Source of the DNA: Candidatus Hermodarchaeota archaeon
GTDB lineage: Archaea; Asgardarchaeota; Hermodarchaeia; Hermodarchaeales; Hermodarchaeaceae
Length of the DNA stretch: 64,000 nucleotides
Assembly: GCA_016839365.1 (NCBI GenBank)
Contig: JAEOUH010000047.1
Span: 1-64,000, forward strand
Reading direction: 5' to 3'
Within the stretch, counting starts at the first letter, position 1. Each line of letters begins with the position of its first letter. Below, piece after piece: positions 54,932 to 57,621 of this stretch. The position numbers and the translations under genes were made by a program. The notes beneath the pieces were generated by a model. The model was given only the letters and a program-made list of their open reading frames with translations, was not told the origin of the DNA and did no database searches.

Positions 54932-55522
54932 ATGGTAGAGGAAAACGAACAGCATTCTTCAGAAGAGGAGCGCCTTCCGCTTCCTGATGAGCCTATTCCA
55001 GCGAGATTAACTCGGGGAAAAGTAGTGGTTGAAGGTGAGTATGCGTCTGTGCTCTATGAGGCGGGGTATTATGGTACGATCAAGGGTGAGCAGAAATTAG
55101 AACTTGAGCCCGAAGAAGCGCTCTTATTGGCTCGGCGACAGCGTATAGCGGTGAGTCTGCCACAAAAGGAGGTGCTGGAATTTTCTTCGCTGCTGATGCG
55201 CTTATCAGAGGGGCAGCCGGGACTTTGGACTCGTTTTCTTGTATACAGTGATCTTCGAAGCCGAGGGTATGTAGTGCGGACGGGGTATGGGAAAGGATTG
55301 TTGTTCCGCGTATATCCAAGAGGAGCTAAGATCAATGAGGCAACTGCTCAGTATTTTGTTTGCGCGATTTCCGAGGGCTCTCCCTTGAAGGTGGAAGAGC
55401 TGGATGCGTTTAGCAAACAGGCGAAACGTAACCGGAAGAAGTTGATGCTTGCTGTGTTAGACCGGCAGGGGGAGACGACGTACTACCTTGTGTCTCCTGC
55501 TGATATTGTTGCGGAAAAATAG
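54932..55522 (+). CDS. endA: tRNA splicing endonuclease subunit (probably the structural, non-catalytic subunit)
   Basis: VYSDLRSRGYVV, FRVY, KKLMLAVLD..GETTYY; the catalytic His position appears to read TAQY. Confidence 0.85.
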   Translation: MVEENEQHSSEEERLPLPDEPIPARLTRGKVVVEGEYASVLYEAGYYGTIKGEQKLELEPEEALLLARRQRIAVSLPQKEVLEFSSLLMRLSEGQPGLWTRFLVYSDLRSRGYVVRTGYGKGLLFRVYPRGAKINEATAQYFVCAISEGSPLKVEELDAFSKQAKRNRKKLMLAVLDRQGETTYYLVSPADIVAEK

Positions 55523-55538: not shown

Positions 55539-55661
55539 TGGCGGGCCCGCCGGGAATTTCGACGTCAACGTTATCGATCGTATTCGAACCCGGGGTTACC
55601 AACTTAGGAGGCTGGCGCCTTCTCCGGGGAAGAAGAGCCTATCCGGCTTGGCCACGGGCCC
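55539..55661 (-). tRNA. tRNA-Arg(CCT) with two non-canonical introns (D-loop 55622-55640; T-loop 59/60 55556-55582)
   Basis: Removing the 19-nt and 27-nt BHB introns gives a 77-nt cloverleaf with anticodon arm CCAGC-CTCCTAA-GTTGG. Confidence 0.88.
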
Positions 55662-56591: not shown

Positions 56592-56774
56592 TGGTGCCGA
56601 GGGCGGGCGTTTCGTGAAGCCCTACAGGCTTCAGTTCGATCCCGCGACCTCCAGATTTCTCCGGTGCGCCAGCAATCATCATATTTTGACCCTGGGGCAA
56701 AGCCCTATGAGTATCGCCCTGACATTTCAAGAATGTTCCAAGTCTGGCGCTCAACCAGGCTAAGCTACCTCGGC
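56592..56774 (-). tRNA. Elongator tRNA-Met(CAT) with three introns (30/31: 56713-56743; 37/38: 56657-56705; 59/60: 56609-56634)
   Basis: Three BHB motifs; the spliced product is a 77-nt GCCGAGG...CCAGA-CTCATAA-TCTGG...CCTCGGC-ACCA cloverleaf. Confidence 0.85.
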
Positions 56775-56944
56775 AGCACTAACCCACCGACCGTACCTTT
56801 TAAGCATTATTCTCAGGGCTTCCCCGATTCACAATTTTTCACACCTATTCACTAACACGAAGCAATTTTAAGCACCAAAACAACTTTGACACGCCACCAA
56901 CTGTGCGGGGCGTGTCCAAGGGTCACCGCCACAAAGACTAAGCC

Positions 56945-57055
56945 GCGGGGGTATCTCCCCCGATAGAGACCCCACAGCCAAGCTTGGTCAAAGGCGCAGG
57001 ACTTAAGATCCTGTCTCGTAGGAGTTCCCGGGTTCGAAGCCCGGCCCCCGCACCA
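56945..57055 (+). tRNA. tRNA-Leu(TAA) with intron at position 8/9 (56953-56975, 23 nt)
   Basis: BHB GGGG/CCCC, inner TCTC/GAGA; spliced 88-nt type II cloverleaf with CAGGA-CTTAAGA-TCCTG. Confidence 0.88.
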
Positions 57056-57156
57056 ATTTTCAAAAGATTTTTGTGCAATCTTGGAAGGTAGCGATTCGGA
57101 AAGCCACAAGCATCTTCCGAATCATTAATCAACAGTACTTGCACTAAATCAAATGA

Positions 57157-57485: not shown

Positions 57486-57621
57486 GGGCCGGTAGTCTAG
57501 TTATCCGGTTACAACTTGTGCTGGACTAGAGCGGTATGATGCGAGAAGGAAAACGGGTTCTGTTTTTCTCGCAAAGTTTGGGACCTCGTGGTCCCGAGTT
57601 CAAATCTCGGCCGGCCCACCA
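57486..57621 (+). tRNA. tRNA-Pro(TGG) with two non-canonical introns (D-loop 57503-57531; 30/31 57546-57575)
   Basis: BHB CTAG/CTAG and TGCG/CGCA; spliced 77-nt cloverleaf with CGAGG-TTTGGGA-CCTCG. Confidence 0.88.

Follow-up and report, generated by a model that had tools for sequence, protein, structure and literature searches.

Introduction

The tRNA-Leu(UAA) gene of a Hermodarchaeia archaeon, contained in a 64,000-nucleotide stretch of DNA (the window, as the whole of it is called here), carries an intron of the tRNA splicing endonuclease (EndA) type between positions 8 and 9, and folding models indicate that the splicing of this intron is probably enabled by the gene's own 5′ leader. With more reserve, we lean slightly towards a general view: that a previously unrecognised cis-acting refolding leader, made up of a spare acceptor strand and an anti-D-loop strand, is required for splicing in archaeal tRNA genes with acceptor-adjacent introns, and postpones RNase P cleavage at G1 until after intron removal. 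Such leaders would have arisen independently in Hermodarchaeia, Freyarchaeia and Hadarchaeota, with a partial form in Bathyarchaeia. tRNA leaders are usually regarded as disposable spacers.

A review of tRNA introns names positions from 20/21 to 59/60 in a list that ends with 'etc.', with 3/4 as the extreme case (PMC4090602), and introns in the acceptor region are acknowledged in general (PMC12397907). Supplementary Data 4 of a 2024 Asgard study, in the portion available, lists without comment a Freyarchaeia tRNA-Thr(CGT) whose intron begins 8 nt into the gene (PMC11291895). In the available portion of a 2026 Asgard census, a few acceptor and junction introns are grouped as 'other', and its main text there refers neither to leaders nor to RNase P nor to Hermodarchaeia (bioRxiv 10.64898/2026.10.13.758758). 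As far as the accessible parts of these sources extend, the 8/9 position is catalogued but rare and undiscussed. An earlier reading of the DNA letters (the sequence-only reading) had considered the site unusual; it is indeed absent from the positions named in the review, but it already stands in the published table and occurs in several lineages. No published account of such a leader was found in a literature check that was incomplete and for which '8/9' is not a searchable term. The additions made in this study are a covarying anti-D-loop helix and a comparison across four lineages.

Results

The intron at position 8/9

The intron is virtually certain to be real. As the sequence-only reading had proposed, a strict hBHBh′ motif is built from the 5′ acceptor strand with an 8-nt first exon, and both its coordinates and its motif proved exact (Table 1). 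The central helix has 4/4 pairs; the bulges are GT|A and AC|A, each cut after the second base; and of the flanking helices, h′ comprises 4 bp and covaries, while h comprises 2 bp within the gene and is lengthened by the leader. ARAGORN calls a canonical 88-nt tRNA-Leu(TAA) once 56953-56975 is removed, again as proposed, and calls no tRNA in the unspliced gene, for which Rfam gives no match at its gathering score. Among 23-nt excisions at junctions 5/6 to 11/12, the full motif (4/4 central pairs and both flanking helices) is found only at 8/9, so that the other placements are ruled out, and only 0.03% of shuffled introns reach 4/4 pairs together with an h′ of at least 4. The stretch 56900-57057 is matched without differences by a contig from a separate sequencing run, possibly of the source sample. 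The contig sets of three metatranscriptomes from the same study contain no match at the locus, which counts neither for nor against splicing. A split or permuted tRNA gene was ruled out, as both exons are colinear within one gene. The T-loop (57033-57039) ends in G at position 60, rather than the usual pyrimidine, in the Leu-UAA genes of the family.

Table 1. Positions of the features of the tRNA-Leu(UAA) locus in the window and of two open reading frames on another contig (L130).
Feature	Position	Strand	Details and basis
tRNA splicing endonuclease, structural (beta-type) subunit	54932..55522	+	NCBIfam endA above cut-off; 1.4 kb upstream of the Leu gene
TATA-like box	56866..56872	+	72 nt before G1 and 32 nt before the spare acceptor copy; sequence
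Spare copy of the 5′ acceptor strand	56903..56910	+	GCGGGG (56905-56910, lacking one G), with a GT predicted to pair with A73-C74
Leader segment opposite 56993-56996 (3′ strand of the D-stem region)	56927..56930	+	Folding only
Anti-D segment GACTAAGC	56936..56943	+	Antisense to the D-loop at 56982-56989; extends the BHB outer helix
Exon 1 (tRNA positions 1-8)	56945..56952	+	BHB central helix from G3-G6, first bulge from G7-U8
BHB 5′ strand GC-GGGG-GTA-TCTC	56945-56957	+	Sequence
23-nt intron at 8/9	56953..56975	+	h′ helix 56954-57/56966-69; central strand CCCC 56970-73
BHB 3′ strand GAGA-CCCC-ACA-GC	56966-56978	+	Sequence
Exon 2 (position 9 to encoded CCA)	56976..57055	+	ARAGORN on the spliced sequence; includes the variable arm
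Anticodon TAA, in exon 2	57004-57006		
3′ acceptor strand, in exon 2	57045-57051		
Endonuclease-like open reading frames, contig L130	2194-2679 and 7050-8021		

Scans of genome collections used an exact pattern specific to Leu and thus cover Leu tRNA genes only. In a search of 400 Asgard genomes, the pattern was present in this genome and in 18/18 others of its family (in Leu-UAA, Leu-CAA or both), and in no Asgard genome outside the family. The BHB is retained in 36/36 distinct loci and the 4/4 central pairs in 35/35 distinct Hermodarchaeia introns, counts that overstate independence because the orthologues are related and the Leu-UAA and Leu-CAA introns appear, from the intron ends that they have in common, to share one origin. 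The central pairs vary only by replacement of C with U opposite G, and h′ shows compensatory changes. The introns of the relatives measure 14-34 nt in Leu-UAA and Leu-CAA, and exon 2 is identical among the orthologues of the genus through the discriminator base.

It is very improbable that the insert stays in the RNA, whether in a pseudogene or in a tRNA that functions with a 23-nt hairpin after U8. The intron loop varies but the exons do not, the BHB geometry is conserved in all loci, and the insert is present in every Leu-UAA orthologue recovered from the family. The genome is only 84% complete, which leaves this reading some room, but no second Leu-UAA gene was found in it. TTA is a common Leu codon (9,663 of ~60,500 Leu codons in the long open reading frames of the genome); since no other Leu-UAA gene was found and TTA is frequent, the gene is probably essential.

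The spare acceptor strand

The coordinates given by the sequence-only reading included the BHB but left out the leader, some 40-50 nt of upstream sequence on which the BHB fold is predicted to depend. The TATA-like box lies 63-76 nt from G1 in the orthologues, against mostly 22-45 nt in the other tRNA genes of the genome. Because of this distance, both leader elements (the spare copy and the anti-D segment) should be transcribed, with a start site placed from sequence.

The spare copy is predicted to hold the 3′ acceptor strand (pairing probability 0.93), and the other 29 distinct Leu-UAA/CAA loci of Hermodarchaeia have a full 7-nt copy 39-43 nt upstream. Among the 43 tRNA genes of this genome, an upstream copy of at least 6 nt accompanies 3/3 genes with an 8/9 intron and 1/40 of the others, where it lies upstream of the gene's TATA box; the two Leu genes among the three are not independent. 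No copy of this length was found in 17 other Asgard Leu genes without an 8/9 intron, in which none exceeds 3 nt. In a tRNA-Lys(CTT) gene without an early intron (G000:C15:73573-73669, minus strand), an exact 7-nt copy of the 5′ strand was noted 57 nt upstream, beyond the TATA box. The copies would behave as pairing strands, because they can differ from the exon (G7 against exon A7 in His, A5 with a mismatch to C68 in Hadarchaeota, an extra U in Freyarchaeia) and, in Hadarchaeota, extend antisense to the ACCA end.

The copy might instead be the true 5′ exon, in which case the 40 nt between the copies would be a second, acceptor-stem intron (best junction 5/6) and exon 2 would be only 3 nt long. 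This arrangement, the main alternative, is unlikely. The copy stands at the normal distance from the TATA box and junction 5/6 provides 3-4 of 4 central pairs in all loci; however, this pairing follows from the self-complementary GCG, in most loci it reaches 3/4 and is accompanied by no outer helix, and the present locus has neither flanking helix. An intron at 3/4 has been published for Thermoproteales (PMC4090602), and in the His gene of this genome 4/4 central pairs can form at junctions 3/4 and 4/5, where the flanking helices are short, but no one junction fits all lineages, the A5 copies of Hadarchaeota cannot provide position 5, and the cut sites of the second intron are far apart in the predicted fold. 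No conserved strict BHB was found for direct excision between the acceptor copies, and nested two-step routes, traced by eye, gave no correct product.

The anti-D segment

The anti-D segment is predicted by folding to pair with the D-loop with P=0.999, and this pairing is kept in 131/136 cells across 17 Leu-UAA sequences. At -4:17 an A-U pair is replaced by G-C where the D-loop changes between genera (12 versus 5). The duplex amounts to -11.2 kcal/mol here, compared with a median of -3.0 and a minimum of -6.9 kcal/mol in 40 control genes, and it is weaker in the Leu-CAA (-7.5) and His (-4.3) genes of this genome. The helix of the leader segment at 56927..56930 is weaker than the other two leader helices, and its partner differs among the orthologues. 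As Bathyarchaeia have an anti-D helix but a copy of only 2-5 nt, the copy is not universal; of the two elements, the anti-D helix has the wider occurrence in Leu genes.

Splicing could also proceed unaided, either during transcription or through capture by the enzyme, if the copy and the antisense stretch were relics of a duplication, inversion or integration at the time of intron gain. The first 35 nt contain the BHB, which could form ahead of the synthesis of the 3′ strand; tRNA-Leu genes are integration targets, and a decayed partial Leu-UAA copy 4.6 kb from an intact gene (L043, G005:C36:2711-2837) resembles an integration scar. We nevertheless consider this rather improbable: across two genera and two isoacceptors the spacers diverge but the 7-mer is invariant, changes in the D-loop are matched in the anti-D segment, and in Bathyarchaeia and Hadarchaeota the same role falls to unrelated leaders.

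Fold energetics

The BHB competes with the 7-bp GC acceptor stem because it takes acceptor bases 3-6. The sequence-only reading had stated that the acceptor stem cannot form while the BHB is folded; this holds in that G3-G6 cannot serve the native stem and the central helix simultaneously, whereas an acceptor-like helix is still predicted through the spare upstream copy of the 5′ strand. The balance was measured as the constrained-fold energy of the BHB fold minus that of the native-acceptor fold, in two-dimensional models at 37 °C. Constrained energies were chosen because the probability of the exact register is uninformative, as the G and C runs slip: the minimum-energy fold from ViennaRNA shifts the pairing of these runs by one base, and the exact BHB register lies a median of 1.7 kcal/mol above that fold in the Leu-UAA orthologues.

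The difference is -7.9 kcal/mol with the leader and +10.4 kcal/mol without it; it becomes -3.4 kcal/mol when the spare copy is removed and +2.6 kcal/mol when the anti-D segment is removed. Without the upstream sequence the 7-bp GC acceptor stem prevails, with a pairing probability of 0.99, and a hairpin formed by the insert projects from the intact stem, as the reading in which it remains unspliced would have it. The leader moves the balance in the same direction in Leu-CAA, in Bathyarchaeia, in the His gene of this genome and in the Freyarchaeia Thr gene, and in Hadarchaeota it turns the difference negative in 5/6 cases. In the two-dimensional models, the leader fold remains below the native acceptor fold by 0-6.5 kcal/mol after splicing (2.5 here); therefore, the strand-replacement step would need tertiary structure or the help of a protein.

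Other genes and lineages

In this genome, tRNA-His(GUG) (G000:C51:9033-9183, minus strand) has a strict 8/9 BHB and an intron of 30 nt; its spare acceptor strand, 13 nt upstream, departs from the exon sequence at position 7. A strict 8/9 BHB is likewise present in the Freyarchaeia tRNA-Thr(CGT), where the spare strand, imperfect in this case, lies 11 nt upstream. Introns of different sequence occupy 8/9 in Leu-GAG of Bathyarchaeia and in Leu-CAA on metagenome contigs, one of which encodes an eIF5A with its nearest named relatives in Hadarchaeota; in Bathyarchaeia and Hadarchaeota the D-loops are different, and each leader pairs with that of its own gene. The matches L075 (Halobiforma), L091, L111, L127 and L129 were set aside as false; the last four have 0/4 central pairs, and the true gene starts downstream or the stretch is duplicated.

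Several further observations concern individual loci. The tRNA-Leu(CAA) gene of this genome (L031, G000:C27:10485-10669, minus strand) shares the 8/9 intron and leader of Leu-UAA and apparently has three further insertions (anticodon stem, 37/38 and T-loop). An AT-rich archaeal contig (L137:12102-12230) has a tRNA-Leu 8/9 insert with 3/4 central pairs, preceded by a copy of 5 nt that lies 11 nt upstream, and is possibly a further lineage with such an insert. On the Hadarchaeota-like contig L130, inspection by eye suggests a probable homing endonuclease frame inside an apparent 23S rRNA gene and a second endonuclease-like frame adjoining the 8/9 tRNA-Leu gene.

Discussion

Proposed order of processing

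In the mechanism that we favour, the transcript would begin a few bases before 56905 and have a leader about 50 nt long. The spare acceptor strand of the leader would pair with the 3′ acceptor strand and the final 9 nt of the leader with the D-loop, extending the 2-bp outer helix, so that the real 5′ strand would be left paired to the intron. An (alpha-beta)2 EndA would then cut after 56952 and 56975, and the exons would be ligated. Finally, the real 5′ strand would displace the spare one, the L-shape would form, and RNase P would cut at G1 (56945), releasing the leader. Splicing by EndA before leader removal by RNase P, the order that the sequence-only reading had suggested, is likely according to the models and remains the leading possibility, the BHB fold being predicted only with the leader attached.

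The genome contains an RNase P RNA and two EndA paralogues. The beta-type subunit encoded near the Leu gene lacks the catalytic His and the specificity loop found in the alpha subunit (contig C43). The latter has the Tyr, His and Lys together with a loop of the Crenarchaea-specific type, and is closest to 3p1z_B (E 6e-46), which we take to be from Aeropyrum pernix. On the sequences of these two paralogues, the host appears to encode an EndA of broad specificity.

Comparison with known systems

Classes of non-canonical archaeal BHB tRNA introns were reportedly set out by Marck and Grosjean in 2003. The present intron resembles such introns in its hBHBh′ geometry, its shortness and the (alpha-beta)2 EndA with a specificity loop; in contrast to them, it borrows the acceptor strand for its central helix, and according to the models its motif prevails only when a conserved leader is present, a kind of helper that the accessible literature does not describe. 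Heavily interrupted Asgard tRNA genes (PMC11291895; bioRxiv 10.64898/2026.10.13.758758) share the Asgard lineage and many non-canonical introns, one listed intron being at 8/9, but the passages found in those accounts do not discuss this position. In the split and permuted tRNAs of Nanoarchaeum, Caldivirga and Cyanidioschyzon (PMC4033280, PMC3728597), the BHB is likewise built with flanking sequence outside the mature tRNA and splicing precedes RNase P, as predicted here. However, the present gene is colinear and cis-spliced, and its leader, as modelled, is not cut by EndA and instead keeps exon sequence out of the way.

Selection seems to act on the leader as a switch between folds, one that decides in which order splicing and 5′ maturation take place, and such a leader would explain how an intron persists where the BHB must take the acceptor stem. 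For annotation, the proposal predicts which leaders must be kept; ARAGORN and Rfam (at the gathering score) miss such genes. Furthermore, Asgard EndA and RNase P could be tested on the gene with its leader, a short substrate that can be made entirely by synthesis.

Neighbouring tRNA genes

Three further interrupted tRNA genes were noted close to the Leu gene. A tRNA-Met(CAT) gene (56596-56774, minus strand), divergent from the Leu gene, has three insertions and is missed by ARAGORN and Rfam. By eye, a tRNA-Arg(CCT) gene (55543-55661, minus strand) has an insertion in the D-loop, and a probable tRNA-Pro(TGG) gene (57486-57621, plus strand), which ARAGORN calls as Ser, has two insertions.
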